Shown piece by piece: positions 772-49,597 of a stretch of DNA of 64,000 nucleotides (the stretch's first letter is position 1; each line of letters begins with the position of its first letter). The notes under the pieces are model-generated. The model made no database searches. It saw only the letters and a program-made list of their open reading frames with translations, and had not been told where the DNA came from. Both the position numbers and the translations under genes were made by a program. Source of the DNA: Bacillota bacterium (lineage in GTDB: Bacteria; Bacillota; DTU025). The stretch spans positions 416,001-480,000 of the forward strand of contig JBMNJT010000002.1 in assembly GCA_050951805.1 (NCBI GenBank). Reading direction: 5' to 3'.

Positions 772-780
772 CGTTCGATA

Positions 781-805
781 AGGGGGAAGCGCCCCGCTTC
801 CCCCT
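781..805 (+). terminator. GC-rich stem-loop between the SBP and permease genes (attenuator or mRNA-stabilising hairpin)
   Basis: AGGGGGAAGCG-CCC-CGCTTCCCCCT, perfect 11-bp inverted repeat. Confidence 0.7.
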
Positions 806-838
806 GCTCTATTTGCACGTTTAGAGGAGAGGGCATGA

Positions 839-1807: not shown

Positions 1808-1809
1808 GG

Positions 1810-3896: not shown

Positions 3897-4906
3897 AGAT
3901 ACTGTCCACAACGGGGCTGAAGAAGTACTTTCCCATAAGGTCGGGGGTGTTTCTGCAAGTTACAGGGTATGTAAGGGCACTGGAATCGACCGACTTCGAG
4001 ATAAACGAAGGAGAGACCATCGGCATCGTCGGCGAGTCCGGGTGCGGCAAGAGTACCCTCGGGAGGACGTTGGTGAAGATCTACGAGCCCACTGCAGGGA
4101 CGATAACCTACTATGATCCTCTCGGGGCGAGCCACGACATCTCAAAAGGCCTTGGCCGAGATGTGAGGCAGACATTTAGAAAAGACGTGCAGATGATATT
4201 CCAAAACCCCTTCGATTCACTCAATCCGAGGATGACAATACGGGACATAATCCGCGAACCCATCGAGACCCACAAACTCTTCGATGACGTGGCGGCAATG
4301 GATGAGCGTGTCGCAGAACTTTTGACCCGGGTGGGCTTGTACCCCGAATACGCCCAGAGATATCCCCATGAGTTCTCCGGAGGCCAGCGACAGCGGATCG
4401 CGGTGGCGCGCTCGATCGCGGTCAATCCTAGGCTTCTCATATGCGATGAGCCCACGTCGGCTCTGGACGTCTCCGTTCAGAGCCAGATCATCAACTTGCT
4501 AAAGGAGATACAGCGGGAGACGGGCATGTCTCTCATCTTCATCTCCCACAATCTGGACGTGGTCCATCACATGAGCGACAGGATCATGGTGATGTACCTT
4601 GGCAATGTTGTGGAATCAGCGCCTGCCTCGGAGCTTTTCGACGAACCGGCTCACCCCTACACGAGTGCGTTGATGTCGGCCATCCCCAGCTGGAATCCGA
4701 AAGACCGCAAGCTGGCTAAAGTCAAGCTTGAGGGGGAACCGCCCAGCCCCATCAATCCGCCGTCGGGTTGCCCGTTCCATCCGAGGTGTCCGCACGCGAT
4801 GGAGCTTTGTCATGAGATCAAGCCCGAGCCGCAAGAGGTGAACGATGGACACCTGTGCGCCTGCCATCTGCATGCTCGGGCGGATGCAGAGGTTGCTGCG
4901 AGGTAG
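3893..4906 (+). CDS. oppF: Oligopeptide ABC transporter ATP-binding protein (OppF/AppF)
   Basis: [37 protein letters not shown]. Confidence 0.93.
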   Translation: MKILSTTGLKKYFPIRSGVFLQVTGYVRALESTDFEINEGETIGIVGESGCGKSTLGRTLVKIYEPTAGTITYYDPLGASHDISKGLGRDVRQTFRKDVQMIFQNPFDSLNPRMTIRDIIREPIETHKLFDDVAAMDERVAELLTRVGLYPEYAQRYPHEFSGGQRQRIAVARSIAVNPRLLICDEPTSALDVSVQSQIINLLKEIQRETGMSLIFISHNLDVVHHMSDRIMVMYLGNVVESAPASELFDEPAHPYTSALMSAIPSWNPKDRKLAKVKLEGEPPSPINPPSGCPFHPRCPHAMELCHEIKPEPQEVNDGHLCACHLHARADAEVAAR

Positions 4907-4974
4907 TTGAGTTAGGCGCCCCAGGCCACAAGCTGGCGTGACCGGCGCGGAAAGTGGTGGTGCTTGTGGAGAAT

Positions 4975-5883
4975 ATGGACTACGCTGATCTTGCCACAGA
5001 GGAAACGAACCCCAGATCCCGTGGGCTAGACCGGATGAGCACAGTGCAGATCCTTGAGGTTATGAACGAGGAGGATCGGCGCGTGCCCGAGGTCGTAGCC
5101 AGGGCTATTCCGGAGATCGCAAAGGCTGTTGACATGATCGTGGCGCGTATGGCCGCAGGCGGAAGGCTCCTGTACGTGGGCGCCGGGACTAGCGGGCGCC
5201 TGGGGATCCTGGATGCCGTGGAATGCGTCCCCACGTTCGGAGTAGATCCAAACCAGGTTTCTGCCGTGATCGCCGGCGGACCTGGAGCCGTATTCCATTC
5301 TGTTGAAGCCGCAGAGGATGACGAGTCGTCAGGGGTTCGCGATGTTGCGGAGTCAATCACGGAATTGGATGTTGTGGTTGGAATATCCGCAAGCGGCGTT
5401 ACCCCTTACGTTCAGGGAGCATTGAAAGCGGCGAAAGAAGTCGGCGCGGGCACTGTGGCGATCGTGTGCAACCACGCCGATAAGCTGGACCTTGATGTAG
5501 ATGTTGTTATATCCCTGCCCGTCGGCGCTGAAGTGCTCACAGGCTCCACCCGCCTCAAAGCCGGAACTGCCCAAAAGCTCGTCCTTAACATGATATCCAC
5601 TGCCACAATGGTCAAGCTGGGCAAGGTGTACGACAACCTCATGGTGGACATGCAGGCGACCAACAGGAAACTGAAGCGTCGTGCTGTGAGAATCGTATCC
5701 ACCGTCACGGGGCTGGATGAAGAGGTCAGCGAGGATTTGCTGGATAAGGCGGGCGGGAACATCAAGACCGCCATCGTTATGGCGTTGGCATCAGTCAATA
5801 GGCGCGAGGCCGAGCGTGCTCTGGAGAAGGCGTGTGGGCACACCAGAAATGCGGTACAGGCGGCCATAGAGCGCACGAGGTGA
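4975..5883 (+). CDS. murQ: N-acetylmuramic acid 6-phosphate etherase
   Basis: TEETNP, GAGTSGRLGILDAVECVPTFG, GSTRLKAGTAQKLVLNMIST, GKVYDNLMVD. Confidence 0.96.
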   Translation: MDYADLATEETNPRSRGLDRMSTVQILEVMNEEDRRVPEVVARAIPEIAKAVDMIVARMAAGGRLLYVGAGTSGRLGILDAVECVPTFGVDPNQVSAVIAGGPGAVFHSVEAAEDDESSGVRDVAESITELDVVVGISASGVTPYVQGALKAAKEVGAGTVAIVCNHADKLDLDVDVVISLPVGAEVLTGSTRLKAGTAQKLVLNMISTATMVKLGKVYDNLMVDMQATNRKLKRRAVRIVSTVTGLDEEVSEDLLDKAGGNIKTAIVMALASVNRREAERALEKACGHTRNAVQAAIERTR

Positions 5884-5889
5884 GGAGAA

Positions 5890-6918
5890 ATGCCTGCTGA
5901 ACGATTTCCTCTTTTACCAGGCGTTGGACACGGAGGCGAAGCCGGACTCCTTTTGGGTGTAGACGGCGGCGGGACGAGGACAGATTGTCTGCTTGCCACC
6001 CTGGACGGCGTTGTAATAGGCCGAGGATCCTCCGGCCCTTCCAACCTTCAAGCGGTCGGAATTGATGTGGCGGTTTGTGAGATAGAAAAGGCCGTCAGAT
6101 TGGCCATGCGCGAGGCGGCATGTTCCGGCGGGACGGCGAGAATCACTTCGGCATGCTTCGGCCTAGCGGGCGCCGGCCGTAAGCGCGACCGCGACATGAT
6201 TGAAATGAGGCTTCGTCAGCTGCTTGCAGAAGTCTGTTCCCCGGATGCGCCGTTTCCTGCGCTCACCGTGGTCAACGATGGGATCATTGCGCTTGCCGGG
6301 GCGAATGCGGGCGAGCCCGGCGTAGTAGTGATCGCGGGGACCGGATCCTTGGCGTATGGCGTGTCGCCTGATGGCCGGGAGGCGCGAGCAGGGGGATGGG
6401 GATACATCCTCGGGGATGAGGGTTCTGCATACGATATTGGAGTTAAAGGGCTCCGTGAGGCGCTCCGGGCGGCGGACGGGAGGCAGATTCCCACATGTTT
6501 GACGGAAGACCTCGCTGTTGCGCTCGAGATCGAAGAGATTGAAGATGTTGTTTCAGTGGTGTATTCGGGGATGACGAGACCGGAGATCGCGGCGCTAGCC
6601 CCTGTAGTTGCCAAGGCGGCCGAAAAGGGAGATCATGTCGCACAGGACATAGTTGTCGATGCGGGCCGAGAACTTGGACTGATGGCCTTAGCGGTAATCC
6701 ATCGACTCGGGATGAGCGGCGGCGCTGGCAACGTTGCAGCCGTCGGCGGCGTGCTCGAGTCCAACGAGATGGCGCTCGACGCCATGCGAGGCAGGGTGAA
6801 GGTATCGGCGCCCGCGTGGTCTGTTGAGCGAGGCAAATTTTCGCCGGCGGTTGGCGCCCTGCTTGTCGCCGGACGGGCGATTGGGGGCGGCTCGATCGAC
6901 GAGGACCACGCCAGATAA
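5890..6918 (+). CDS. BadF/BadG/BcrA/BcrD-family N-acetylglucosamine/MurNAc kinase (MurK-like)
   Basis: GVDGGGTRT, IAGTGS, RAGGWGYILGDEGSAY; amino-sugar operon context. Confidence 0.88.
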   Translation: MPAERFPLLPGVGHGGEAGLLLGVDGGGTRTDCLLATLDGVVIGRGSSGPSNLQAVGIDVAVCEIEKAVRLAMREAACSGGTARITSACFGLAGAGRKRDRDMIEMRLRQLLAEVCSPDAPFPALTVVNDGIIALAGANAGEPGVVVIAGTGSLAYGVSPDGREARAGGWGYILGDEGSAYDIGVKGLREALRAADGRQIPTCLTEDLAVALEIEEIEDVVSVVYSGMTRPEIAALAPVVAKAAEKGDHVAQDIVVDAGRELGLMALAVIHRLGMSGGAGNVAAVGGVLESNEMALDAMRGRVKVSAPAWSVERGKFSPAVGALLVAGRAIGGGSIDEDHAR

Positions 6919-6973
6919 CGTCTGTAGTTGATGGGGCAGTTGGGTGGCTGGGTGATGGAAAGGCGGGGGTAGA

Positions 6974-8617
6974 ATGGAACTGCTTGATTCCATGAACATT
7001 GAAGAAAAAATAGGGCAGATGGTAATGGTGGGTCTGGATGGCCCCGAGCTTACGTCATCTGATCAGGAATTTATCGACAAGTACAAGATCGGCAACGTAG
7101 TCTTCCTCGGAAGGAACATAATCGATCCGAAGCAGGCACAGTCTCTCACCTACGGGCTCCAGGAGACCGCCTCCAGGCGCCGCCATCCAATAGGATTCCT
7201 CCTCTCCATCGACCAGGAGGGCGGGGTGGTTGCCCGGCTGACAAGGGGCGGGACTGTGTTTCCTGGGAACATGGCCCTCGGGGCGACCCGGTCAGAGGAG
7301 TACGCACGCCGGGCAGCCAAGGTGACGGCGGACGAGATGCTTGCCCTGGGATTTAACATGAACCTCGCGCCGGTACTCGATGTTAACAGCAATCCCAACA
7401 ACCCCGGGATAGGGGTCCGCTCATTCGGGGAGGACGTCGATATGGTGACCCGGCTCGGAGTTGCGACTATCGAGGCTTACCAGGCCTCGGGGGTGGTAGC
7501 CACTGCAAAGCATTTTCCGGGGAAGGGCGATGTCACAGTAGACTCCCACCTCGACCTGCCTACCGTTCCCCATAACAGAGAGAGGTTGGAGAGGGTGGAG
7601 TTTGCCCCGTTTGCAGCTTCCATACGAGCAGGGGTTGGGGCCGTCATGACCGCCCACGTATTTTTCCCGGCCGTGGAGGCGGAACCTGACCTTCCGGCGA
7701 CTCTTTCCCGAAAAGTGCTCACGGGCCTGCTCAGGGAAGAGCTGGGGTTTGGCGGAGTGCTGCTCACAGACGACCTCTTCATGGGCGCCATCGCGAAAAG
7801 GTTTTCCATCGACGAGGCGGCAGTGCGGGCGCTGGAGGCTGGGGCGGATATCGCTCTGCTCTGTCACAATCAGGCCGAGCAGGCCGTGGCGATTGAGGGC
7901 ATATGGGATGCTGTGAGGAGTGGAAGGATCTCAGAGGAGAGGGTGGATGAATCGGTCAGGCGAATTTTGGGGCTCAAGGAACGTTTCGGCTTGCTTGCTC
8001 CAGAGAGATACCTCGTCCGACGCAGCCTGAAGCCGGTAGGAAGCCCGGAAAATCGTCGTGTTGCCCTGGAGATCGCAAGGGATTCGGTGACCCTTGTTGC
8101 GAATAGACAGGCACTCATTCCCATGACGCCGGAGGATTACCCGGGCCTTGTAGTCATGTCTCCCGACATCCGAGGGCTGACACAGGTCGAAGACGGTCAA
8201 CTGGCGGAATCTCCGCTTGTTGCAGAGATCAAGCGCTTTGTTCCTGGGGTTCGGGATTTCGGTTTTTCCCAGTCCCCCGATGAACGGGAAATAGCGGAGG
8301 CGGTCAGTTTTGCGAGCGCCAAAGATGCGGTGATTATCGGCACATACAACGCCCACCTCTACCGAGAGCAAGGCAGACTGGTCAGGGCTTTGCTGGAGGC
8401 GCTCGATCCAAACATCCCCGTGGTGGTTGTGGCGCTCAGGAATCCATACGACATTCAACAGTTCCCGTCTGCAGAGACGTACATAGCCGCCTACGGGTTC
8501 AGGGAGTGCACGATGCGAGCCGTGGCGGAACTTATCTTCGGCGCGATCGCGCCCAAAGGGAGGCTGCCCGTTTCCATCCCGGGGATATGCGCTTGCGGGG
8601 CCGGGTTGACTCAATAG
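6974..8617 (+). CDS. nagZ: GH3 beta-N-acetylhexosaminidase (cytoplasmic, two-domain)
   Basis: IDQEGG.V.RL, APVLDVN, RSFGED, KHFPG-G-VTVDSH, TDDL; no signal peptide. Confidence 0.92.
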   Translation: MELLDSMNIEEKIGQMVMVGLDGPELTSSDQEFIDKYKIGNVVFLGRNIIDPKQAQSLTYGLQETASRRRHPIGFLLSIDQEGGVVARLTRGGTVFPGNMALGATRSEEYARRAAKVTADEMLALGFNMNLAPVLDVNSNPNNPGIGVRSFGEDVDMVTRLGVATIEAYQASGVVATAKHFPGKGDVTVDSHLDLPTVPHNRERLERVEFAPFAASIRAGVGAVMTAHVFFPAVEAEPDLPATLSRKVLTGLLREELGFGGVLLTDDLFMGAIAKRFSIDEAAVRALEAGADIALLCHNQAEQAVAIEGIWDAVRSGRISEERVDESVRRILGLKERFGLLAPERYLVRRSLKPVGSPENRRVALEIARDSVTLVANRQALIPMTPEDYPGLVVMSPDIRGLTQVEDGQLAESPLVAEIKRFVPGVRDFGFSQSPDEREIAEAVSFASAKDAVIIGTYNAHLYREQGRLVRALLEALDPNIPVVVVALRNPYDIQQFPSAETYIAAYGFRECTMRAVAELIFGAIAPKGRLPVSIPGICACGAGLTQ

Positions 8618-8636
8618 GGAGGAGAGTCGGGTCGCT

Positions 8637-9833
8637 TTGTGTTCAACGATGAAGGTTGTGGGCCTTATGTCAGGCACATCCGCTGACGGCATAGATGCTG
8701 CCCTAGTGGAGATAGAGGATCGGGATTCGGGCCTGAAAGCGGAGACGTTGGCGTTTGGCAATTACCACTATCCTGAGAGAGTGAGAGAGAAGATATTCGA
8801 GCTTTTCTCCCCCAAAACGTCTTCAGCGGATAGAATATGCAGGTTCAACTTCGTGCTGGGCAGGCTCTTTGCAGATGCTGCGGTTTCTGTAATAGAGCAG
8901 GCGGGCTTGGAATTGGGAGATGTAGATCTCGTGGCCATGCACGGCCAGACCGTATGCCATCTGCCCTGGGCAGGAGAAGGGGAGTTCCAAGTCCCTTCAA
9001 CACTCCAAATAGGCGAGCCCGCGGTAGTGGCCGAGCGCACCGGCATAACCGTCATCTCGAACTTCAGGTCGCGCGATATTGCAGCAGGCGGCCAGGGGGC
9101 TCCATTGGTACCTTATGCCGATTACATCCTCTTTCGCCATGAGGACAAGACGAGGGTTGTGCAGAATATAGGGGGGATTGCCAATATGACGGTCCTGCCC
9201 CGCGGCGCGCGGCCTCAGGATGTGATCGCTTTCGACAATGGGCCGGGGAACATGGTGATAGATGCGGTGGTGAGCGAAGTCACTGGGGGATGCATGGATT
9301 ACGATGTGGACGGGGCTATTGCGGCAAGGGGCAGAGTGGTAGAGGAATTCGTGGCGGAGCTGATGGATCATCCTTTTGTGCGGATTGAGCCTCCCAAGAG
9401 CACGGGGAGAGAGGAATTCGGCGCGGAGTATGTAAAGAGTGTCATGGCTCGGGCGCGGACCTTAGGAATCGGCGACGAGGACATTGTCGCGTCTGTCACG
9501 GCTTTTACCGCTGAATGCATCGGCAAGCATCTGAGCGACTTGGTGGTGCCTGAATATGGGTTGGACGAGCTGATCATCGGGGGAGGCGGCGCCTACAATC
9601 CCACCTTGATGAGGATGATCAGGGAGCGAGTGGATCCTGTGCCTGTTGTAACTCACGAGGCGTATGGGATATCGAGCGATGCCAAAGAGGCCATCGCTTT
9701 TGCGATCCTCGGATATCTCGGCATACATGGGATCCCGGCGAATCTGCCTAGCGCGACCGGCGCCCATCACCAGGTTCTGCTCGGATCCATAACGCCCGGG
9801 CGCCGGTCGGAGAAGATATGGGATCGGCTTTAG
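8637..9833 (+). CDS. anmK: Anhydro-N-acetylmuramic acid kinase
   Basis: GLMSGTSADGIDAAL, HGQTVCH, DIAAGGQGAPLVP, NIGGIAN, FDNGPGN, KSTGREEF. Confidence 0.96.
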   Translation: MCSTMKVVGLMSGTSADGIDAALVEIEDRDSGLKAETLAFGNYHYPERVREKIFELFSPKTSSADRICRFNFVLGRLFADAAVSVIEQAGLELGDVDLVAMHGQTVCHLPWAGEGEFQVPSTLQIGEPAVVAERTGITVISNFRSRDIAAGGQGAPLVPYADYILFRHEDKTRVVQNIGGIANMTVLPRGARPQDVIAFDNGPGNMVIDAVVSEVTGGCMDYDVDGAIAARGRVVEEFVAELMDHPFVRIEPPKSTGREEFGAEYVKSVMARARTLGIGDEDIVASVTAFTAECIGKHLSDLVVPEYGLDELIIGGGGAYNPTLMRMIRERVDPVPVVTHEAYGISSDAKEAIAFAILGYLGIHGIPANLPSATGAHHQVLLGSITPGRRSEKIWDRL

Positions 9834-9868
9834 GCTACACAAGGACACTTTGAGGGGGCAGGAGACAG

Positions 9869-10759
9869 ATGACAAATGACAGAGATGAAAACAGGGTGCA
9901 GCAGACTAAGAATGCCGACTACTGCCTCGTAACTATCCGCGGACGATATCCTTCTCTTGCTCCTGCCGAGCAGAAAGTCGCATTCTTCATCCTCGAGCAC
10001 CCTGAAGCCGCCGCCGAGATGACCTCGGTTCAGCTGGCTGCAGCTGCAGGAGTGAGCGAGTCGACTGTGGTGAAATGCTGCCAACGCCTTGGATTCACAG
10101 GATTTTCCCAATTCAAGTTGGCGTTGGTCAGAGAACTCGCTACCAGCAGGGAGGGTGCGTTCGGCGAAGTTGAGCCTGGAGACGATGTACCCGCCATCTG
10201 CGACAAGATATTCACGGCAACGCTTCAGGCGGTTGAAGATACAGCTAAGGTGCTTGACCCCTCCGAGGTTGCCCGCGCAGCAGAGGCCATACATCGTGCC
10301 AGACGGTTGTTCTTCTTCGGCGTAGGCTCCTCAGGGGTGGTTGCCCAAGACGCCCAGCTCAAGTTCATGCGCATAGGGATGACAGCCTTCAGCTATCTTG
10401 ATACCCATGCTCAGCTTACACAGGCTGCTCTGCTGAATCCAGAGGATGTGGCGGTGGTGATAACCTACTCAGGCCGGACGAGGGAGGCCATGGATGTCAT
10501 CGATCTTGCGCGGGAATGTGGGGCGTGTACGGTCTGCATCACGAATTTTCCGACTTCGCCCGCGGCTGTGGGCTCTGATATCGTGCTCTGCACCACGGCA
10601 CACGAGGCCACTGGGCTCAGGGGAGGGGCGATGACCTCTCGGCTGACACAGCTTGCCGTGATCGACTGCCTTTTCACCGCAGTGGCCATGAAAGAATCAG
10701 ACGAGGCAATGGAGCTCCTCATGAAAACCGTGGATGCCCTGGCATCGAGGAAGATCTAG
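9869..10759 (+). CDS. murR: MurR/RpiR-family transcriptional regulator (HTH + SIS)
   Basis: LAAAAGVSESTVVKCCQRLGFTGFSQFK HTH; SIS motifs GVGSS, YSGRT. Confidence 0.88.
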   Translation: MTNDRDENRVQQTKNADYCLVTIRGRYPSLAPAEQKVAFFILEHPEAAAEMTSVQLAAAAGVSESTVVKCCQRLGFTGFSQFKLALVRELATSREGAFGEVEPGDDVPAICDKIFTATLQAVEDTAKVLDPSEVARAAEAIHRARRLFFFGVGSSGVVAQDAQLKFMRIGMTAFSYLDTHAQLTQAALLNPEDVAVVITYSGRTREAMDVIDLARECGACTVCITNFPTSPAAVGSDIVLCTTAHEATGLRGGAMTSRLTQLAVIDCLFTAVAMKESDEAMELLMKTVDALASRKI

Positions 10760-10922
10760 ATGGCTTTCGAGTGGTGTTCGGAAGGTGGGGATATTGGTCC
10801 CTAGGTACGTTTTTCACTGCCTGCCAGAGAACCGGGGATTGGTGTGAAGTGATGGGGCTAGGAGGATCTGTGGCGTGATCAATCGAGCCGGACTGCAGCA
10901 GCCCGAAGTGGAGGGGTGGAAC

Positions 10923-12128
10923 GTGACTGGGCCCGTGGTCAAACTGGGTGTGACGAAGCTCCTCGAAGAGCCGGAGAAGTATCTCGGCACGGCGAGAGTG
11001 GGCCTTGTGGCCAACTACAACGCGGTGGATGAGTATGCAACCCCGATAATCAGGCTCTTTGCCGAGTGCCCGAAGATAGAGTTCACCCGGATTTATGTGG
11101 CTGAGCATGGCTTGTGGGGCTGTGAACAGGCCGGGGTGAAGGTAGGACATATCGGTGATTTGCGAACCGGCGTAGATGTGGTCAGTCTGTACGGCGAAAC
11201 GGTGAAGCCGACTCCGCAAATGCTGGAAGATATCGATGTGTTGGTCTGCGACGGCAATGATATTGGATCGCGCTACTGGACTTGCCTTTCCACCACGGCA
11301 CTCTGTATTGAGGCGGCTGCCGAAGCGGGAAAGCAGATAATCGTGACGGACAGGCCCAATCCCATCGGCGGAATGGCTGTTGAAGGCAATCTTCTCGACA
11401 TCGAGTACCGCTCTTTTGTGGGGTACGATCGGATACCTATTCGCCATGGAATGACCCCGGGGGAACTGGCCGCGATGTACGTCGGCGGGGCAGGCCTTGA
11501 CGTGGATCTTCTCGTGATTCCCATGGATAACTGGGGAAGGGAGATGCTCTTCCCCGAAACCGGCCATTTTTGGACCGGCACGCCAAACATGCCCGGTTTT
11601 GAGACCGCCCTCGTGTACCCCGGAACCTGCTTGTTTGAGGGAACCACGCTTTCCGAAGGAAGGGGAACGACGAAGCCATTCAGGCTGATCGGAGCGCCCT
11701 GGCTCGATGCTATCGATCTTGCCGATAGACTCAACACCATGGAGCTTGGCGGCGTACGCTTTAGGCCGGCCCACTTCAGGCCGATGTTTTCAAAGCACAG
11801 CGGCGTGGAGTGTGCTGGGGTAGAGGTTTATGTGACAGATGCTTGGGAGCTTGATCCGGTTCGCTTGGGGGTTTCAATGCTGATAGCCGCAAGGGAGCAG
11901 AATCTGGACGCTTTTGGATGGTATGGTGCGGGAAGTCCGACCGGCTCTGCTGACCTGGCGCGCCCGTTCCCGGTCGAAGGGCGGCATCTGTTTATCGATC
12001 TTCTTGCAGGAGGCGCCGAGTTGAGAAGATGGATTGAGGAGGGCGCGACTTCTGATGAGATAATGGCCAGGTGGGAACGGGAGACAGCCGAGTTCATGGA
12101 TGCGCGGGAGCCATATCTCATTTATTAG
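10923..12128 (+). CDS. namZ: Exo-beta-N-acetylmuramidase NamZ/YbbC (DUF1343) family, divergent
   Basis: EHG, SLYG, DRPNPIGG, RHGMTPGELA, YPGTCLFEGTTLSEGRGTTKPF, terminal REPYLIY; GTG start after GGAGG. Confidence 0.88.
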   Translation: MTGPVVKLGVTKLLEEPEKYLGTARVGLVANYNAVDEYATPIIRLFAECPKIEFTRIYVAEHGLWGCEQAGVKVGHIGDLRTGVDVVSLYGETVKPTPQMLEDIDVLVCDGNDIGSRYWTCLSTTALCIEAAAEAGKQIIVTDRPNPIGGMAVEGNLLDIEYRSFVGYDRIPIRHGMTPGELAAMYVGGAGLDVDLLVIPMDNWGREMLFPETGHFWTGTPNMPGFETALVYPGTCLFEGTTLSEGRGTTKPFRLIGAPWLDAIDLADRLNTMELGGVRFRPAHFRPMFSKHSGVECAGVEVYVTDAWELDPVRLGVSMLIAAREQNLDAFGWYGAGSPTGSADLARPFPVEGRHLFIDLLAGGAELRRWIEEGATSDEIMARWERETAEFMDAREPYLIY

Positions 12129-12349
12129 CAGTGGTAGAGCAAGTTCATGCTTTAGCCCCTAAACGCGCTGTTTGCCGCCTGCATGCGGCTGATTCTCTAA
12201 AGGATGGCTATACATGAAAAATGCCCCTCCAAGTCTAGTGCCGCGGAATATGTTTGGAACTAGATAGCACCCGATATTTCCCGCTCCCCTTGTCGCATCC
12301 CCAAGGTGAGGTATACGTGTGCGTCAGAACGTCTGACAGGCAATGCCGT

Positions 12350-13312
12350 TTACAAGAAGTTGCGAAGTGATTCGTAAAGTTCGTTGCAGAGAGTCTCAAC
12401 ATATTCCCGCCTTGCGATCACTGAAAGCCATTGACCCGGAATGCTTTCATACCCGTAATAAAGCCCTGCAAGCCCTCCGGCAACTGCAGCGACTGTGTCG
12501 GTATCTTCGCCTAGGTTTACTGCCTTCAGAACACACTCCCCGAAACTGCCTGTGTTGAGCAGACACCAAACGGCGGCTTCGAGCGTATCGACGACGTATC
12601 CGCTGCTTCTGATGTCGGCTTCATCCAGTCGATTGAAGCCTTCATGCGCAAGCCTTTCGTAGTGATGGAGCTCATGGGAAAATCGGGCTTGCACTATGTA
12701 GTATTGCATGGCCCTTCTGATCCCCGTTTCGACGTGTGTTTTGAGATCCTTCCCTTCCATGAGAGCTGAAGCGATAGATACATAGATGCCGCATGCGATC
12801 TGGCTGCGCTCGTGGGCATGGGTGAGGGCTGAAATGTTGTGGATGATGTCAAAAGCCTCATCTATGTCGTAAAAGCCAGGCCCATAGACAGAGCGTAGGT
12901 GAAATAGGATTGGAAGGATCCTCATTAGCGAGCCGTTTCCGTTGTCGCGTTCATCTGTACCTCCGCACTCCAAAGGGGTTGCTCCCCGGGAGAACTTGTA
13001 TAGGGCTTTTTTAGTCGTGTTCCCCGCATCAAAGGCCTTCCCGTATGGCGTATACGCCCCTTCATTGAGCCATGCGAGGAATCTCTCCATGATATCCCGA
13101 TAGTCCAATCCCCTGATGAGGCTGTCGGCAAGGCATAGCGTCATGCTTGTATCATCAGACCAAGTCCCGGCCGGCTGGTTATATGTGCCGTAGGCGCGCA
13201 TACCGACCACCGGGTTTTCCTTCAGAGTCTCTCTGTGAGTAAATTCCACGGGAACGCCCAGCGCATCGCCGACGCATAGTCCCATTACTCCTGCCAACAC
13301 ATGATTCGTCAT
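12350..13312 (-). CDS. ADP-ribosylglycohydrolase (DraG/ARH family)
   Basis: GDALGVPVEF, WSDDT, GNGSLMRI, AVNLGEDTDTVAAVAG. Confidence 0.92.
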   Translation of the reverse strand: MTNHVLAGVMGLCVGDALGVPVEFTHRETLKENPVVGMRAYGTYNQPAGTWSDDTSMTLCLADSLIRGLDYRDIMERFLAWLNEGAYTPYGKAFDAGNTTKKALYKFSRGATPLECGGTDERDNGNGSLMRILPILFHLRSVYGPGFYDIDEAFDIIHNISALTHAHERSQIACGIYVSIASALMEGKDLKTHVETGIRRAMQYYIVQARFSHELHHYERLAHEGFNRLDEADIRSSGYVVDTLEAAVWCLLNTGSFGECVLKAVNLGEDTDTVAAVAGGLAGLYYGYESIPGQWLSVIARREYVETLCNELYESLRNFL

Positions 13313-13845
13313 GCATACACTCCTCATATACGTCAGTAGTCAAGCCGTCGCTTCTGTGCGAATCTCTCGAAGTTCGCCTCCCAGATGCGACTATGCCAAG
13401 CATCTACAGTTCAATTGAGCGATAATCCGTTTGGGCATAGATTCGTTGCGCCTGCGAGAGGCTCCTCTTAGGCCTGTTCCAAATCTTTGCGGCTTTGGAT
13501 TTCGATTGTCTCATGTGAAAGTGTAATTGAGATCTGATTGGTGGTGCAAGTTTGGAGCAGGATGGGGATGAATGAAAAAGAGGCCGCGTGGTCACGGAAG
13601 ATGTTCCTGAGCGGGACGTCGCTGTTAGGGCATATTTATCGATAAGCTTTGTGGCATTTCTGCAGGGGAGTGTGTAGATTTTACGAAAACAGATTATTCA
13701 GGGAGTCCTGGCGACGCCATTAAGAGGTAATGTGTGAGGGCTTTTTGGGTTTATATATGCAAAATGGAGTTTATGAGGCCAACATGTAGAAGAGGAGACA
13801 TAATCCGAAACTTGTATGGAAATGGGCAGCTCAACAATGCATTGC

Positions 13846-13930
13846 ATAAATATGGTGGTATTATGAAGGCAAAACCAAAGGAGGAAAACCATATTCCGAC
13901 GTAGAATAAATATGGAACAACGAATATGGA
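13846..13930. promoter_or_regulatory. Repeated AATATGG motif (putative operator) upstream of the deacylase/GGT operon
   Basis: ATAAATATGG at 13846 and 13906, AATATGG at 13923, and inverted repeat CCATATT-N13-AATATGG (13889-13915) in an AT-rich intergenic region. Confidence 0.35.
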
Positions 13931-13972
13931 GCGCGCTAAGGCCTGTTGACTATGGATACGGAGGTGAAACCC

Positions 13973-15103
13973 ATGGGCGACAGAGGCGCAAGAGGGGTAG
14001 TCGTAATCGTCATTGCTTTGATTGTGACAGCGGTATCTGCAATGAGGTTTGCGCCATTGGGCCCTGAAGAACTAGAGGCGTACCCATCGCCTTCAATCAG
14101 TCGTGTAGCTAAGCTATCTGAATATAACTCGGCACTTTTGGGCACTGCAGGAGATACTGAGGTATTGATCTATGAGGGCTCTCAGCCAGGCGGAACGATG
14201 CTTGTGGTTGGGGGAACTCATCCTGATGAGCCAGCGGGCACGGTTGCAGCTCTGATTCTGGCAGAGAACGTTGTCGTGGCGCAGGGCAAGCTGATTGTGA
14301 TACCTTATGCAAATGCTTCAGGCTTTACCCACAACCTTCCTCAGGAGGGACATCCCCCATACTACACCCTATCTACCCCGGGTGGCGATCGAATCATGAA
14401 ATATGGTTCGCGTTTAACGAATCCCGTCCACCAATGGCCTGATCCCACGGTCTATGTTGAAAAGGTATCCTATCAGAAACTTGCCGGGACCGAGGCACGC
14501 AATCTCAACAGGGCTTACCCCGGCGAAGAAAACGGCTCGCTGACGGAACGCGTGGCATATGCCATCACCCGGCTCATCATCGATGAAGAGATAGATGTCT
14601 CCATCGACCTCCACGAATCATCTCCCGAGTATCCTGTGAACAATGCTGTTGTTGCCCACGAGCGGGCGTTTGACCTGGCAGCTATTGCTACTCTCGATTT
14701 GGAAATGGAAGGCGTGCAGATCAACGTCGAGCCGTCTCCACCCAACCTGAGGGGGCTTTCGCACAGGGAATGGGGAGATAATACCGATACGTTGGCGCTG
14801 CTGTTTGAATCACCTAACCCCGTCCAAGGCAGACTGAGGGGAGTAACAGATGCTGATTTGATCGTTGACGGGGTGGATCCTATGTACGTGAAGGCATCTG
14901 AGCGAGGACGTTTGTATGTGCCATATACAAGTGAAGGAACTCCGCTTGCAATGAGGGCGGGCAGGCACCTTGCGTCAGTGCAAGCTATTGCAGCGGCCTA
15001 TTCCATGATGGCGCCTGACAGAGCCATTGTTATGGAGGGGTTGCCGTCGTATGGCGAGATAGTTGCAAATGGCGCAGGAGCCTATCTGAACCCAAGCAGA
15101 TAA
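13973..15103 (+). CDS. Membrane-anchored or exported succinylglutamate desuccinylase/aspartoacylase (AstE/AspA, M14-like) family protein
   Basis: N-terminal hydrophobic segment; GGTHPDE (HxxE), RNLNR, DLHE zinc-deacylase motifs; RBS ggaggtg. Confidence 0.82.
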   Translation: MGDRGARGVVVIVIALIVTAVSAMRFAPLGPEELEAYPSPSISRVAKLSEYNSALLGTAGDTEVLIYEGSQPGGTMLVVGGTHPDEPAGTVAALILAENVVVAQGKLIVIPYANASGFTHNLPQEGHPPYYTLSTPGGDRIMKYGSRLTNPVHQWPDPTVYVEKVSYQKLAGTEARNLNRAYPGEENGSLTERVAYAITRLIIDEEIDVSIDLHESSPEYPVNNAVVAHERAFDLAAIATLDLEMEGVQINVEPSPPNLRGLSHREWGDNTDTLALLFESPNPVQGRLRGVTDADLIVDGVDPMYVKASERGRLYVPYTSEGTPLAMRAGRHLASVQAIAAAYSMMAPDRAIVMEGLPSYGEIVANGAGAYLNPSR

Positions 15104-43147: not shown

Positions 43148-45022
43148 GAATCTGCTCGGAAACTCCTCAAGGGCAGGCGTGAAGTTCGCTGGACCGAGTT
43201 GACTGAGAGCGATGTATCATCATGTGCGGACGTATAGGACGGCTATGTTGGGTTTGCCATCGTAATACGCAACATTGCTTTCAACTTCGTGGTATTACGC
43301 CCATATATGTGCTATAACATCAGCATAACATGTGTTTGGAGGCTACATCCATGCAAGGCCGGCGCGAACAACAGTTGACGTTTTCCGATGCTCTCTGGCC
43401 CAACGAAATACCCGAGAATTCCTACTGGGCAAGAATGCGAAAATACCTCCTTCAAATAGATGAATCAGTGTTCAGCCCTTTATTCTCGCATACGGGGCGT
43501 CCCTCGATTTCACCTGTGCTCACCTTTGGCGCAATGCTCATTCAGCTTGAAATAGGCTGGTCAGATAGGCAGTTGGAGGAAGAATCCCGGTTTGACGATC
43601 GCTGTAAATATGCCTTCGGGGTGAGTCGGGATTTCGCGGGGATTGATGCAGTTACCCTCTGCGAGCATAGGGCAAGGTTTATAGAATCAGGCATCATATT
43701 CACCTTGTTTCGCGACTTGCTGGCCGACGCCAAAGCAAAAGACCTCATCTCCGAGGACAAGCTCGAGATCGTCGATTCCTTTATGACCTATGGAGCCGCC
43801 GCTGTCCAAGATACATATACATTGCTACGCAAGGGAATCGTGCGGGTTCTCAAGATAGCCGAGTTCCATGAGTTCGATTCCAAGCTGACGCCTGTGCTTG
43901 GCCGCAAGGATTACACAACTGATGCAAAACCCAAGATCAACTGGGATGACCCTGAGGAAAAGCGCCTTCTGTTGGAATCTTATGTTGTTGACGCACGTAA
44001 CCTTGTAGCCGCCGTCCGTGCTTTGCAGCCTTTGCCCCGGGATTTGAAGGATGCGGCTGACCTGCTGGAACGCATTGCAAAGCAAGATATCGACGACGAT
44101 GATGGCCAGATCAACAGGATAATATCTGTTAATGACCCAGATATGCGACACGGGCGCAAGACATCGTCCTCCAAATTCGATGGGTACAAAACGCGCATCA
44201 TGACCGATGGCAATTTCGTAACTGCCGTGGTTGAGACGCCTGCCAACAAGGCTGACTCCGAACCATTCCCTGATCTTATGGATCAATGCGAGGCAAATGG
44301 AATCAAGTTTACGGAGGTCATGGGCGACAGCGCCTACAGCAATTGGCTGATTATCGACAGAAAGGCCAAGGATGGGATAACTGTGATAGCCAAAGTGCCA
44401 TCGGAACCGATAGTGGATGGAAGATACCCAAAGGGCAAATTCGACATAGACACGGAAAACGGTGTGGTTGCCTGCCCAGAGGGGTTTGCAGCTCAGTTTG
44501 ATCCATCTGCGATTGAGAGGCGAAAAGGGACCGTTGCTCGTTTTTCAGACTGCACGGAATGCACGAGTTCCTCAAGAGGCCGCAGCATATCGATCCACCC
44601 CTATGAGCCGGAGATAGCTACAGAACGGAAAAAGCAGGCGACGCCCGAATTCAAGGAATTCTACTCAGAACGCGCTGACGGCGAGAGGGTCATAAGCCAC
44701 CTGACAAGGCACGGGGGCAGACAGGCAAGGTACATAGGAGCCTTCAAAGTGTGGTGCCAGGAGGTCCTCACAGCGCTCAATCACAACATCAAGGCCTTCT
44801 ATAGACTGGCGCCAGCCACTGGCTAGATGTTGCAGGGGAGGACTGCCTGCAGAATCGGATAAATAGGCGCAAACGGGAAGCGCCTGGGGTGATGGGGGCC
44901 ATTAAGTTAGGCCCATGATGCCCTAAGCTATTGCTGGCAGCCTCTAGATAACCACATACTGCCTTTTCTTGATTGTCAAAGATTGCTCCGGGTTGATATC
45001 AGCTCTGTTGGCGAGCAGATTC
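43148..45022 (+). mobile_element. IS1182/IS5-like insertion sequence, about 1.9 kb, with CTAG target duplication
   Basis: Terminal IR GAATCTGCTCG (43148) / CGAGCAGATTC (45022), flanked by CTAG at 43144-43147 and 45023-45026. Confidence 0.88.
43351..44826 (+). CDS. IS1182-family DDE transposase
   Basis: GRPSISP, SDRQL, DPDMRHGRK..FDGYK, GDSAY, CPEG, ERVISHL. Confidence 0.88.
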   Translation: MQGRREQQLTFSDALWPNEIPENSYWARMRKYLLQIDESVFSPLFSHTGRPSISPVLTFGAMLIQLEIGWSDRQLEEESRFDDRCKYAFGVSRDFAGIDAVTLCEHRARFIESGIIFTLFRDLLADAKAKDLISEDKLEIVDSFMTYGAAAVQDTYTLLRKGIVRVLKIAEFHEFDSKLTPVLGRKDYTTDAKPKINWDDPEEKRLLLESYVVDARNLVAAVRALQPLPRDLKDAADLLERIAKQDIDDDDGQINRIISVNDPDMRHGRKTSSSKFDGYKTRIMTDGNFVTAVVETPANKADSEPFPDLMDQCEANGIKFTEVMGDSAYSNWLIIDRKAKDGITVIAKVPSEPIVDGRYPKGKFDIDTENGVVACPEGFAAQFDPSAIERRKGTVARFSDCTECTSSSRGRSISIHPYEPEIATERKKQATPEFKEFYSERADGERVISHLTRHGGRQARYIGAFKVWCQEVLTALNHNIKAFYRLAPATG

Positions 45023-45163
45023 CTAGGAGGGACCGAGTTGAGCACACAGCAAGTCATTAGGAGATTGGCAGTCGTCTGCTCTGTTTGGCAATCGAAAAGT
45101 TCATAGTTCGGCAGTCAAAAAGTGCATAGGCTACCACCACGCCCGGGGTCGGATCTCAGGGCC

Positions 45164-45955
45164 CTATTGGGCCGGGTCGTTTTTGTAAATAGTGTTTTGT
45201 TGGGGGTGGGCACCTCCAACGTCATCTGGGACATGCAATTGGGAGAGGGCGTGCCGTAGACGGTAGCTCTCCCCTGTGAATGCAAGCACATGTCCGTGAT
45301 GAACAAGCCTGTCAATGAGCGCGGCAGTGAGCCGGCTGTCGTTGATTACCGTGTTCCATTGTCCGAACTCAAGGTTCGTAGTGATGGCTACGCTTCGGCG
45401 CTCATAGCAGCTGGCGATTACTTGGAACAAGAGCTCTGCTGCGTGACGGGGTAGAGGCAAGAAGCCCAGTTCATCCACGATAAGCAGATCGCATGATTCG
45501 AGATCGCGTATTAAGCTTCCAAGAGTCCCTTTTGCGTTCTTCTCCAGCAAGCGGTTTGCCAGATCAACTGTCTGAAAGAATCGGACCTCCTTTCCGCTGA
45601 GGACAGCCTTAAGCCCCAGCGCTATCACAAGATGAGTTTTGCCTGTCCCCACGCCGCCCATGCAAATCAGGGACTCCTTCTCATCGATGAACCTCAGTTC
45701 GGTTAGATGTTCTATCGTGGTTTGGGGCGGCAATATGATGTTGTCACAGGAGAACTCCTCCAGCGTCTTGGTTTGCGGAAACCCTGCACGCTTCAACCTT
45801 CGCCGGTTTCGATTTTTCTCTCGGTTTCTTAGCTCTTCTGCAAATAGATCAGTCAGGAATTGCTCTCTGCTTTCAAAGGATATTTCATTGTAGGTCTGGC
45901 TCACCGAACCGAGTTTGAGCATCTTGCACTGTTTCTGAAGCAAAGAGTCTGTCAT
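45164..45955 (-). CDS. istB: IS21 helper ATPase IstB
   Basis: AGFP..KTLEEF, GGVGTGKTHL, VDELGF, YERRS, TTNL, IDRLVHH, GESYR. Confidence 0.96.
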   Translation of the reverse strand: MTDSLLQKQCKMLKLGSVSQTYNEISFESREQFLTDLFAEELRNREKNRNRRRLKRAGFPQTKTLEEFSCDNIILPPQTTIEHLTELRFIDEKESLICMGGVGTGKTHLVIALGLKAVLSGKEVRFFQTVDLANRLLEKNAKGTLGSLIRDLESCDLLIVDELGFLPLPRHAAELLFQVIASCYERRSVAITTNLEFGQWNTVINDSRLTAALIDRLVHHGHVLAFTGESYRLRHALSQLHVPDDVGGAHPQQNTIYKNDPAQ

Positions 45956-47475
45956 GCCTTGACCACTCCTTCAGCCCGTGCAGGCAAGAGCTTGTCGTAG
46001 ACTGCGGAATCTGGATTGTAAGCTGCTACTTCAATTGGCGTGTATCCCTCGGCAATAGGTTCGGGAAGCCCGTTTTCGGGGTTAAGCGCATACAGCTTGA
46101 GCTCAACGTTCGCGGGGTTGGCGCGCCTATCGGCTGGCAACACCTCAAGCGCCTCAGCTACTTCGTCTATGGAATACATCTTCAGCATGTCTCTCGCGAA
46201 CCGCACTCTAGCTGACCGTTCCGATGCATTCGCCTCCTTGAGGTAGGCTTGGACCGCCTTCGGAAGATAGCGGAACATAGCTGAATGCACGGCGGCTCGT
46301 GGCCTACGTGAGTAGATCTCAAAATGGGCCAGCCAGTCAATTGGTTGCTCTTTGAGCATGTAGTGCCTTGGCAGCGTTGTGAGCGCTTCGCCTTCCCGGT
46401 TCCGCACCTCGATGCGATCCCAATACACACTGAGCAAAACCTTCTGCCGTGGTTTCCCCTGTGGCACTGAATAGGTTTCCGACTCGAAGCGGAATTGAGC
46501 ATAGTTGTTTAATACTGCAGCATCAAGCCGCACAGCCTCGAATGGAACGCTTGGGAGCGGCAGCAACGCTGATTGCTCTTCTCGCCACATGTCGGCTATA
46601 GTCCTGCCCTTCTTGTAATGAATGCGATCCATGTCGCGGATAGCCTTAATTGCCAGTTGTTCGCCGAGCTCCTCGAAACTGTTGAGGGGGTGAAGAGGGC
46701 ATAGCCATTGCCGGCGTGAGTATCCTACCTTGTTTTCAACATTTCCTTTCTCGTTGCCTCGAGCCGGCGCACAGAAATCAACATCGAAGCGATAATGGAG
46801 CTGAAAGCGCATGAACGCCTCCGTAAGCGTGCGTTCTTCGCCCTTCCCTATGGTTGCTACCATAGTCGTCGCATTGTCCAACACTAGCCTCTGCGGCACA
46901 CCCCCTGCCTGCTCAAACAGAAGGCGAAGACCCTCCAGAAGGCACTCACCGTTCTCTGATGGCATTGGAACCGCAAAGCCAGCGTTTGACCATGGAAACG
47001 AAAGAACAAGCGCCTTGGCTTCCACGATCTTTCCATCCCGAACACAGCGGATTGTTCCGAAATCCGCCTGGGCTTCTCCAGGTTCGTGCATGAGTTCAAC
47101 GTAGGCCGTGGGTTCGGGTTCTTCCTTGAGCAACTCTTTCCGCCGATTTCGAACATACTCCCTAACTGTGCGTTCACTGCCTTCGAAGCCATGCTTCTCT
47201 CTTAGCTCACTGTAAATGGCTGCAGCATTTCGCCGATCCTTTCTCTGCAGCAACTGATCCTCAAGCAGCCAGGTATCTACAATGTCTGCCACGGGATCCA
47301 TTACAGGCCTACGCTTCTTTCTAACCGTAGGCGGCGATTCATTCCAGTCCTCCTTGTAAGCATATTTTGCCGCCGTTCTCCAACACACGTCGACTTTCCT
47401 GGCAATTTCGCTGATAGATGCACCTTCGTTTTCGAAGGCATGCTTGATATAATACTGTACAGGCATAGCGATCAC
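45952..47475 (-). CDS. istA: IS21 transposase IstA
   Basis: N-terminal HTH (SISEIARK), PGEAQADFG, DN, EKGNVENKVGY, YSVP. Confidence 0.96.
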   Translation of the reverse strand: MIAMPVQYYIKHAFENEGASISEIARKVDVCWRTAAKYAYKEDWNESPPTVRKKRRPVMDPVADIVDTWLLEDQLLQRKDRRNAAAIYSELREKHGFEGSERTVREYVRNRRKELLKEEPEPTAYVELMHEPGEAQADFGTIRCVRDGKIVEAKALVLSFPWSNAGFAVPMPSENGECLLEGLRLLFEQAGGVPQRLVLDNATTMVATIGKGEERTLTEAFMRFQLHYRFDVDFCAPARGNEKGNVENKVGYSRRQWLCPLHPLNSFEELGEQLAIKAIRDMDRIHYKKGRTIADMWREEQSALLPLPSVPFEAVRLDAAVLNNYAQFRFESETYSVPQGKPRQKVLLSVYWDRIEVRNREGEALTTLPRHYMLKEQPIDWLAHFEIYSRRPRAAVHSAMFRYLPKAVQAYLKEANASERSARVRFARDMLKMYSIDEVAEALEVLPADRRANPANVELKLYALNPENGLPEPIAEGYTPIEVAAYNPDSAVYDKLLPARAEGVVKA

Positions 47476-48084
47476 TCCACGTTACCTCCCCGATTGGTCA
47501 CAGTCAAATCTAGGGAGGTATTCTTGTGGCGTGGTGGTTATGCCTTCTTAATCTTCAATTTCTCCTGTGACATTTTGGCTGCCGTTCTCTGTATTGCCAT
47601 TATGCCGAAAACATTCAAGCGCAACAGCACGCGTGAGGATGCCATAGCTGGAGTTCGCTGGCTCAATGAACACTATCGAGACTCCAGCTATGCGGTGATA
47701 AACCATCCTTCGCGCGCTATGAAGTATGCGCCGTCCGATCTGAGGGATCTGAACAATGCAAGCCCTGACGTCTGTTTCGGCTTTGAAGGCCTGCCGGGAA
47801 GACAGAAGAAGAGCTTCGGGTGCGGCTATAGCCAGGATTTTGCCGGTATGACACCACTATGTCGGACATATGGCGGAGCCGATCCCTTCCTTGCTACAAT
47901 TGGAGGGGTGTGGGATAGCTTGCTGGGAGAAGGTCGCAGATTTTGGGTTCTTGCTAATTCCGATTTTCATGAGGCTGGGTCCGATTCTGATTTCTACCCG
48001 GGCGAATACGCAAAGAACTACGTGAAGGTTGACGAGAACAGCCCAAAGGGAATAGTGGACGGATTGAGGTCCGGGAACTGTTTC

Positions 48085-48949
48085 GTTCGCCCGGCATGTT
48101 TGTTGAGCCGATGGACTGAAAGAAGTCCTGTCACCTAACCAGCGGGAAGACAACCCCAAGGCAAGGGCGTCGCTGGTAACGGCGGGGTCTGAAGGAAGCT
48201 TTAAGGGGGAACACGGAACGTAGCGAAAGCGAAGCGAAGTTGGGCTGTCAGGTGGGTAACCTTGCGAAGTATGGGAAAGCCCGAAAGCTGGATAACCTGC
48301 GGGTTAGGACGGACGGGTTCGTGTACAGGCAGACAAACTTAACCGGGGAAGCCCTGCATCATCCAGATAGCTGGTAAGCCCAAACAAGCGGAGACGCAAG
48401 GATGGGAATATGTGGTGTGGGGTGGCAGATGAGTCCGTAGTAGTTATGAACCCTCAGCCCATGAAAGCCGGCAACAGACCGGAGGATAAAACTGAGGGGA
48501 CAGCGGCCGGGAGCTGCTGGGCTGCATTGGCCAAAAGCCTATGCAGTTGCGAAGGGACGAAGGCAAACCAAAGCGTGCAACCTAGTTACAGGCAAGCATG
48601 GGAGAAAGATAACAGAGGCTGAAATGCCGATGGGAACGGGGGAGCCGGGGGCGACGAGTCTGCTGGTCCCTGCGCCCGCTCAGCAGAGTATCAAAGTTTC
48701 GCGGGGTAGATTGCCTTAGAGCTAGAGACGCCTCGCAAGCCTTGGGAAGAAACTGCAACCATGCAAGCTTGATGGCCAAGGAAGCACGGCGAGATGAATT
48801 GACCTCACGAAGTATGAGGTCGGCGTCTTGCATCTCTTCTATGAAGCGAAGTGACTAGGGTTTGCCAGGAGCCGTGTACGGGGCCCGTACGCACGGTTCT
48901 GTGAGAGGGATGACGCCAGGCTAATCACCCTGGCGCCACCCTACTCGAT
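48085..48949 (+). ncRNA. ORF-less group II intron (865 nt), short domain V with AGC triad (class E-like by recall)
   Basis: 5' GTTCGCCCGGCATG; DI motif GGCGTCGCTGGTAACGGCGGGGTCTGAAGGAAGC; DV GAGCCGTGTACGGGGCCCGTACGCACGGTTC (48870-48900); DVI ending CCCTACTCGAT; excision joins the exons in frame. Confidence 0.92.
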
Positions 48950-49597
48950 GTTGTCCATGGAGATCTTATTGACCACCTCGATTTCTGGGCCGAGTGCGGC
49001 AGCAGCGCCGCAACTATGGGCGAGTCAATATGGGTTCCGGCTGGGTCAGATGTGGTTGTTACTGTGCGTCTAAGAAGTCCCCATGAAGATGGGGTGGATC
49101 ATGTGGACTTGATCGCCGGAAGAGTATCCGGCCTGATTGTGCCCGAAGATGCGAGATACAACGTGGGAAACAACCCATCTACGCACGTGGTTGCAAGATT
49201 CTTCACAAAAGGCAAGCTTCTTGATGATGAGGGGTTTGCCAGCATGAGCCATGTGATCCGGAATGTGCGGAGTAACATGTATGTGAGGCTCCGAGGTACG
49301 AATCTTCCGGTAGGGGCGGCGCTGGAGACAGACTTCGACGGCGATCCGCTATCTGATGATCTCGCCCACCTAGGCGGCTATGACAACGAAATGGAAGCCT
49401 ATCACGATCTGTGGTTTTATTCGAACCCGATCAACATAAGGGTTGAGGGTGCTTGCTAAGTGCTATGCGCGGGAGCTGCATACCGAGAGCAAGACCAAAT
49501 CTCATGTCCCCTTCCTGTTTTGCATCTGTTATGATGTGGTATGATAATCCACAGGTAGCTGCATAGGAGCGTTATTGCTCCAAAACAAAGGAGTTTT

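Follow-up and report, generated by a model that had tools for sequence, protein, structure and literature searches.

A group II intron without an open reading frame, very probably a non-autonomous derivative of bacterial class C

Introduction

The closest described systems are the class C (IIC) group II introns B.h.I1 of Bacillus halodurans (PMC1702495, excerpt) and O.i.I1 of Oceanobacillus iheyensis (PMC4748821, excerpt). Introns of this class have the boundary consensus 5′ GUNYGCCNRGCAUGG and CCUACYCGAU 3′ (PMC4028801, excerpt), an EBS1–IBS1 pairing of 3–4 bp (PMC1702495, excerpt) and, in most cases, a 3-bp helix below the branch-point A of domain VI (PMC4748821, excerpt). The intron family analysed here resembles B.h.I1 and O.i.I1 in its boundary consensus and in an intron-encoded protein (IEP) that lacks the endonuclease (En) domain. 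It also shares with them insertion behind terminator-type hairpins and an EBS1–IBS1 pairing of 3–4 bp, and it has a helix of 3–4 bp below the branch-point A of domain VI, comparable to the 3-bp helix of most class C introns. Unlike B.h.I1 and O.i.I1, the copy that is the subject of this report carries no IEP gene and lies inside coding sequence without a strong hairpin upstream. Whereas B.h.I1 starts with GUGUG (PMC1702495, excerpt), this copy starts with GUU and not GUG.

ORF-less introns are rare in bacteria and are nearly always accompanied in the genome by related introns that may supply an IEP in trans (PMC4424553, excerpt). The copy described here fits that pattern, being an ORF-less intron in a genome with related introns that encode an IEP. 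It differs in this from C.te.I1 of Clostridium tetani, given as an exception in the same excerpt of PMC4424553, whose genome has no IEP gene; here there are three. In Thermosynechococcus elongatus, ORF-less derivatives have proliferated with IEPs provided by sister copies, and several near-identical ORF-less copies share the genome with related ORF-bearing ones, which implies splicing and mobility in trans (PMC2882425, excerpt). A similar arrangement is found in the genome analysed here. The T. elongatus introns belong to the chloroplast-like (IIB) lineage and retrohome in a site-specific manner; the present introns, unlike these, are assigned to class C and appear to use loose, structure-based targeting.

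The analysis follows up an earlier note on a 64-kb stretch of DNA, referred to as the window, which corresponds to C2:416001–480000 of a 2.75-Mb genome in 8 contigs. Coordinates are positions in the window unless a contig is named.

Results

The intron and its ribozyme domains

The intron occupies 48085–48949 on the + strand and is 865 nt long, with first bases GTTCG at 48085 and last bases CGAT at 48949. Its 5′ sequence from 48085 is GTTCGCCCGGCATG... and its 3′ sequence up to 48949 is ...CCTACTCGAT. Both ends are fixed by the near-complete copies in the genome, 10/10 of which start with GTTCG and end with CTCGAT in unrelated flanks. The sequence ends and the common ends of the ten copies thus bear out, to the nucleotide, the boundaries drawn in the earlier note. 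A comparison with Rfam, also suggested there, gave two matches in total in the whole 64-kb window at the gathering threshold, both on the + strand and both inside the intron. These are RF02001 (group-II-D1D4-3) at 48170–48338, with 50.1 bits against a cut-off of 32, and RF00029 (Intron_gpII, domains V–VI) at 48867–48949, with 48.6 bits against a cut-off of 40. The longest ORF within 48085–48949 is 83 aa, in agreement with the absence of an RT ORF from the intron that had been reported before. The window had likewise been said to hold no intron RT gene, and tblastn with the parental RT (see below) over the window's range of contig C2 found none.

Domain limits were taken from a consensus fold of 22 introns (RNAalifold), the RF00029 alignment, alignment to a full-length copy and an MFE fold. 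Domain I extends from 48085 to 48348 and contains the covarying helices I(i) and I(ii) in the consensus fold, helix I(i) pairing 48090–48094 with 48343–48347. Domains II (~48351–48426) and III (~48433–48558) together occupy 48351–48558, their limits, from the consensus and the MFE fold, being approximate. The remnant of domain IV lies at 48562–48866 (intron positions 478–782); at ~305 nt in the MFE fold, it is longer than the ~260 nt first estimated. Domain V (48868–48900) is short, at 31–33 nt in the MFE fold, with an AGC triad at 48870–48872, a 2-nt AC bulge at 48889–48890 and a 3-nt loop. [quoted passage not shown] The RF00029 alignment and MFE fold therefore agree with the earlier reading of a short domain V with an AGC triad and a domain VI with a bulged A. 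Judged by these sequence features, 48085–48949 is a genuine group II intron of the self-splicing type that has lost its own RT gene.

Full-length relatives in the same genome and the deletion that separates them

Sister copies and an RT-bearing parent, both of which the earlier note had proposed to look for by BLAST, are present in the genome. We refer to the intron at 48085–48949 as copy A, to the other ORF-less copies as B–E, to the full-length copies as F–H, and to two shorter, ORF-bearing copies as I and J. BLAST against the same genome found four more 865-nt ORF-less copies with 97.7–98.3% identity to copy A, at C2:930928 (B), C2:1101225 (C), C4:16381 (D, − strand) and C7:28591 (E, − strand), so that there are five ORF-less copies in all. 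Full-length copies of 2092 nt were found at C2:831218 (F), C7:21996 (G) and C7:29456 (H, − strand). The shorter ORF-bearing copies are at C3:143717–145566 (I, 1850 nt) and C4:101073–102895 (J, 1823 nt). Beside copies A–J, the genome also contains degenerate copies and several fragments.

In copies F, G and H, intron positions 1–714 and 714–865 are split by 1227 nt, with 98–99% identity to copy A on either side. These three copies are intact and encode a 423-aa IEP (P0002) that is 100% identical among them. The IEP contains RVT_1 (residues 70–279) and GIIM (residues 292–370) domains, and a domain search over the 423 aa gave no HNH match that would indicate an endonuclease domain. It scores 428 bits on TIGR04416, a model that marks group II RT/maturases only and not their class. 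The description of copy A as non-autonomous is upheld, as it has no internal IEP gene and three intact, identical RT/maturase genes lie elsewhere in the genome. In copies I and J the RT/maturase genes have several in-frame deletions, which include part of the maturase region (...RGWINYFR... is lost), and their ORFs stay open across 404–408 codons.

Alignment to copy F showed that the ORF-less form is the full-length form minus 1227 nt in domain IV, with the junction at 48798. With this segment the IEP gene has lost its Shine-Dalgarno sequence, its start codon and 405 codons. The segment starts at the AGGAG 8–12 nt ahead of the ATG and stops within the last ~20 codons, leaving about the last 18 codons and the stop codon in the ORF-less form, which keeps ribozyme domains I–III, V and VI. 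A 30-mer across the deletion junction is found in 5/5 ORF-less copies (A–E) and in 0/5 ORF-bearing copies, and the five ORF-less copies lie at five sites with different flanks. Metagenome contigs give both continuations at 48798, the deleted and the ORF-bearing one, as loose ends. A direct repeat at the ends of the deletion was considered and discarded: the microhomology is 1 nt only, and an ATTGA repeat is 8 nt off register, so that no mechanism can be read from the ends.

Assignment of the intron family to class C

Compared with the published class C consensus (PMC4028801, excerpt), the intron agrees at 14/15 positions at its 5′ end and at 10/10 positions at its 3′ end. The 45-nt 5′ flanks of copies B–I have folding energies of −19.6 to −27.8 kcal/mol, and none of them ranks above the 1st percentile of 2000 random 45-mers from the same genome; on the same control the flank of copy J is at the 4th percentile. 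The terminator-like hairpins behind which 8/10 copies sit are GC-rich and are followed by 3–8 mostly U/C bases.

A scan with one genome per species found relatives of the IEP at 58 loci, mostly in Bacillota (Pelotomaculum, Desulforamulus, Desulforadius, Thermotalea), with some in Bacteroidota and Desulfobacterota. [quoted passage not shown] A hairpin followed by a U-run lies upstream of the related intron in 21/21 cases, and 14/21 flanks rank no higher than the 5th percentile of 1036 controls.

EBS1 consists of the four bases that follow UUGC in the loop of ID (intron positions 182–185), which are complementary to the last bases of the 5′ exon. Examples of EBS1/IBS1 are GAAG/UUUC (copy A), AUAA/UUAU, ACGA/UCGU, CAAA/UUUG, AAAG/CUUU and AUG/CAU. 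The first three EBS1 positions pair with the last three exon bases in 20/21 introns. The mean number of EBS1–IBS1 pairs is 3.67 out of 4, compared with 3.05 ± 0.09 after random reassignment of exons to introns; the observed value was reached in 0/2000 shuffles. In copy A, EBS1 GAAG (48266–48269, +) forms 4/4 pairs with the exon end UUUC (48081–48084). The earlier note had proposed the six bases GAAGUA as EBS1; the hairpin loop was the right one, but only GAAG is backed by the comparison across 21 introns.

The termini, the terminator hairpins, the EBS1–IBS1 pairing of 3–4 bp and the IEP without an endonuclease together place the family, by sequence characters, in bacterial class C (IIC). Copy A is very probably one copy of a non-autonomous, ORF-less derivative of an intron of this class.

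The GUUCG start and covariation of positions 3 and 258

The 5′ end GUUCG of copy A (48085–48089, +, with U3 at 48087) is common to 10/10 copies in the genome. Of 26 related introns, 17 start with GUUUG, five with GUUCG, three with GUGCG and one with GUGUG, so that GUUYG accounts for 22/26. Because GUNYG is the published class C consensus (PMC4028801, excerpt) and 22/26 relatives have GUUYG, the start that had been singled out as a non-canonical oddity is a trait of the class, not a peculiarity of this element. Among the full-text matches listed for group II introns, nothing relevant to GUUYG-type starts was found.

In 23 distinct domain I (D1) sequences, position 3 has a perfect partner in position 258 (A258 of copy A, at 48342, +): U is paired with A in 19/19 introns and G with C in 4/4. 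The next best partner column for position 3 is far weaker. On a D1 tree built from the same alignment with columns 3 and 258 masked, the paired state changes four times, with the four G-C introns dispersed over it. In the fold, the internal loop that separates helices I(i) and I(ii) contains position 258, which immediately precedes the return strand of I(i), and position 4 (C or U) is opposite an invariant A257. A compensatory change for U3, which the earlier note had suggested seeking, therefore exists: nucleotide 258 is A where nucleotide 3 is U, and C where nucleotide 3 is G. It is because of this covariation that position 3 appears as N in the class C consensus. The name ε′ was considered for nucleotide 258 and not adopted, its location in solved class C structures being unconfirmed. 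In IIA and IIB introns ε′ is in subdomain IC1, a different place from that of nucleotide 258.

These results bear on the proposal, made in the earlier note, that the intron might represent a new compact family, naturally ORF-less and with an unusual GUUCG end. Its length of 865 nt, its lack of an ORF and a start unlike the general GUGYG consensus would all suit such a family. However, the genome contains 2092-nt ORF-bearing copies with which the intron is collinear at 98–99% identity and from which it differs by the absence of 1227 nt; the intron has class C termini; and its start falls within the published GUNYG consensus (PMC4028801, excerpt) and is of the GUUYG type found in 22/26 ORF-bearing relatives in other genomes. 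A new family is accordingly highly improbable, and we return to copy A as a derivative of the resident full-length intron.

The host gene and the insertion site of copy A

Excision of 48085–48949 joins ...GLRSGNCF to VVHGDLIDHLDF... in frame. An uninterrupted 501-aa allele (P0004), which is found in public assemblies and contains ...LRSGNCFVVHGDLIDHLDF..., is identical to exon 2 at 169/169 residues. Across the insertion point it reads ...KGIVDGLRSGNCFVVHGDLIDHLDFWAECG..., that is, with SGNCF|VVHGDL contiguous. The fusion of two ORF fragments in phase 0 had been predicted in exactly this form. All five homologues fetched (P0004 itself, and P0005, P0007, P0008 and P0011 at 46–54% identity) are contiguous across the insertion point, as had been expected of intron-free orthologues.

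Exon 2, comprising residues 333–501 and the stop codon, is at 48950–49462 (+). The remnant of exon 1, located by tblastn with P0004, is at 47614–48084 (+) and covers residues ~176–332 of the 501-aa CehA/McbA-like metallohydrolase. The NCBIfam model NF038032 (CehA/McbA family metallohydrolase) gives P0004 75 bits, just below its 80-bit cut-off, and a Pfam search gave no match for the host protein. Since exon 2 was matched in only 1/40 related genomes, at 35% identity, the comparison of the host gene is based on protein database matches.

Homology to the host begins at 47614, the first base past the end of a 2.5-kb IS21-family element at 45076–47613 (− strand), whose ORFs are istA (45952–47475) and istB (45164–45955). 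Three other full copies of this element, 98.7–99.0% identical, set its ends at 45076/45080 and 47613. Host residues 1 to ~175 were not found in the assembly, in which tblastn with P0004 detects residues 171–501 only, and to the left of the IS21 element is another transposase gene, not the missing 5′ part of the host. A 498-aa transposase-like ORF (43330–44826) beside the IS21 element makes this a cluster of mobile elements. As the IS21 element cuts the host gene and the first ~175 codons are lost, the intron sits in a pseudogene, and the phase-0 insertion is therefore without present consequence for a protein. Thus, the view that the intron is inserted in phase 0 of a protein gene holds for phase and frame, but the host is a 5′-truncated remnant.

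Metagenome DNA contigs from two runs, belonging to two studies, bridge both exon–intron borders with 0 differences. The occupied allele is therefore real and not an assembly artefact. Public assemblies also contain an intron-free allele that encodes the identical protein sequence, so the insertion is polymorphic.

The site of copy A is atypical. It is inside coding sequence, after UGUUUC, and the upstream hairpin is weak: the 45-nt 5′ flank has a folding energy of −13.8 kcal/mol, which is equalled or bettered by 10.6% of random 45-mers.

Sequence decay in copy A and its prospects for splicing

Among the eight close copies, copy A is the most diverged, with 11–18 differences compared with 0–12 among the other seven. 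It has 13 private changes, four of which fall at positions that are paired in the 22-intron consensus fold, and all four of these break the pair. The broken pairs, 150–228, 160–219, 241–126 and 385–392, are in domains I and III and have each gone from a standard pair to a mismatch. The RF02001 score is 50.1 bits in copy A against 61.7 bits in copies B–E, a drop of 11.6 bits, whereas the RF00029 score is 48.6 bits in copy A and 48.5–48.7 bits in the sister copies. By these differences copy A is the most decayed of the set, and its decay has already begun.

In vitro, a class C intron without the terminator stem-loop yielded no ligated exons (PMC1702495, excerpt). Together with the weak hairpin at copy A, this makes efficient splicing here doubtful. 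It also bears on the possibility that copy A is still a working intron, transcribed with the host remnant and spliced by means of the parental maturase, and that before the arrival of the IS21 element it allowed production of the metallohydrolase. Domains V and VI, EBS1 and both termini are intact in copy A, its RF00029 score is level with those of its sisters, IBS1 UUUC forms all four pairs with EBS1, the intron is in sense orientation and the frame is restored exactly. Against this, all four private changes at paired positions break a helix in domain I or III, the D1 score is lower by 11.6 bits, the class C intron tested in vitro failed to ligate its exons without the terminator stem-loop while the hairpin at this site is only weak, and the host gene has neither its 5′ part nor a known promoter in this genome. 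We therefore regard continued function of copy A as distinctly unlikely.

Logan contigs from two DNA and two RNA sequencing runs were placed on 47600–49460. No contig joins 48084 to 48950, a result that has no bearing either way on splicing, as these are contigs only and exon depths are 0–10. A joint from 48949 to 48085 was found in 4/4 runs (2 DNA, 2 RNA), including an 875-nt permuted RNA contig. The depth of this joint relative to that of the intron was, roughly, ~42/190 and 72/250 in DNA and ~450/1870 in RNA. Circles of intron RNA were considered as the source of the joint and rejected, since the same joint is present in the DNA runs at a similar share and a genomic tandem pair on C7 gives rise to it.

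In the metatranscriptome run X15, summed contig depths were 193–14859 in intron bins, whereas exon 2 had ~3 and exon 1 had 0. In the DNA runs the intron had a depth of ~150–650, compared with 7–10 for the exons. This is a hint that intron RNA may be abundant in run X15, although contig depth is a poor measure and the copies are many.

Tandem copies, nested insertions and remnants

The tandem pair is at C7:28591–31547, where full-length copy H is followed by ORF-less copy E, base to base and with no gap. The pair is likely to have arisen when an already occupied terminator site was invaded a second time, since targeting depends on what is upstream of the insertion point. The 48949→48085 joint amounts to ~1/5–1/4 of the intron depth, which is above expectation for one tandem in ten copies, and further tandem arrays may exist. 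A nested arrangement was seen at C4:16330–17245. Here a 51-nt 5′ fragment of an older intron, with 80% identity, has copy D inserted after its first four bases (GTTC). At this site the intron's own GUUC end puts a UUC IBS1 on offer.

Remnants of several kinds were also observed. Two isolated fragments of ~40 nt, at C8:222587–222629 and C8:364995–365031, correspond to the intron 5′ end only (positions 2–44 and 8–44). Reverse transcription that starts at the 3′ end and stops short would not leave fragments of the 5′ terminus. At C8:449631–452999, immediately downstream of six arrayed tRNA genes, is a diverged remnant of an ORF-less intron; it scores 33.5 bits on RF02001 and gives no domain V match at the gathering score. 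A genome of the same genus (G001) contains shorter relatives of ~420 nt (C16:3052–3472) and ~250 nt (C130:18631–18879), which comprise pieces of D1, D2, domain IV and domains V–VI. These may be further deletion derivatives.

Discussion

One 1227-nt deletion in domain IV of the 2092-nt parent gave rise to the ORF-less form that is now at five sites. In the pathway that we propose, the ORF-less RNA would be bound by the parental IEP made in trans, and the resulting RNP would reverse-splice into single-stranded DNA carrying a short IBS1 (UUC/UUU, read by EBS1 GAAG). The target would usually lie just past a terminator-type hairpin, and the inserted intron would then be copied into DNA from a replication primer. 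Reverse splicing into single-stranded DNA and copying from a replication primer have been described for class C introns that lack the En domain (PMC4424553, excerpt). Copy A landed at an atypical site in coding sequence and has begun to decay; the IS21 element abuts codon ~176 of the host gene.

The distribution of sequence variants allows another history for the five ORF-less copies. Apart from the deletion itself, no substitution separates ORF-less from ORF-bearing copies, and the variant sites are mosaic. Variants common to both groups occur at positions 222–223 in A and F, at 444 in A, H and I, and at 654 in A, D, F and H; copies E (ORF-less) and G (ORF-bearing) have 0 differences over 864 shared columns. 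Recombination or gene conversion between resident copies could thus account for the spread of the deletion. In that case a full-length copy would have invaded first and lost its ORF later, by exchange with an ORF-less copy, and the ORF-less form need never have moved itself. This would, however, require five separate conversions with an identical junction, and one deletion followed by spread is simpler. In addition, for an IEP of cyanobacterial origin, action in trans on the splicing of an ORF-less intron has been demonstrated (PMC4424553, excerpt), and the proliferation of ORF-less derivatives is the subject of a published account (PMC2882425, excerpt). Five sites with one junction are consistent with mobility in trans and also with gene conversion; the history by conversion we consider rather unlikely.

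With respect to spread of the ORF-less form itself, we tentatively suggest that the 865-nt form could be a class C intron that is actively mobile in the manner of a MITE. It would be an RNA consisting of the ribozyme only, dependent on the 423-aa RT encoded by its parents and able to invade coding sequences and its own kind. Such invasion would be possible because class C targeting needs little beyond UUC/UUU and local structure. If this suggestion is right, the high RNA depth relative to the exons in one metatranscriptome would represent a stable pool of excised RNP.

The outcome of the analysis is mainly a correction, in that the supposed new compact ribozyme family is an ordinary class C intron minus its ORF, among many relatives. 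The clean covariation of positions 3 and 258 (U-A in 19 introns and G-C in four, with four independent switches) should be of use to specialists. An insertion of a class C intron inside coding sequence, for which the empty allele is known, bears on how strict the terminator requirement is. Finally, five ORF-less and three ORF-bearing class C copies that are 97.7–100% identical and occur in one genome make a handy system for testing the mobilisation of IIC introns in trans.
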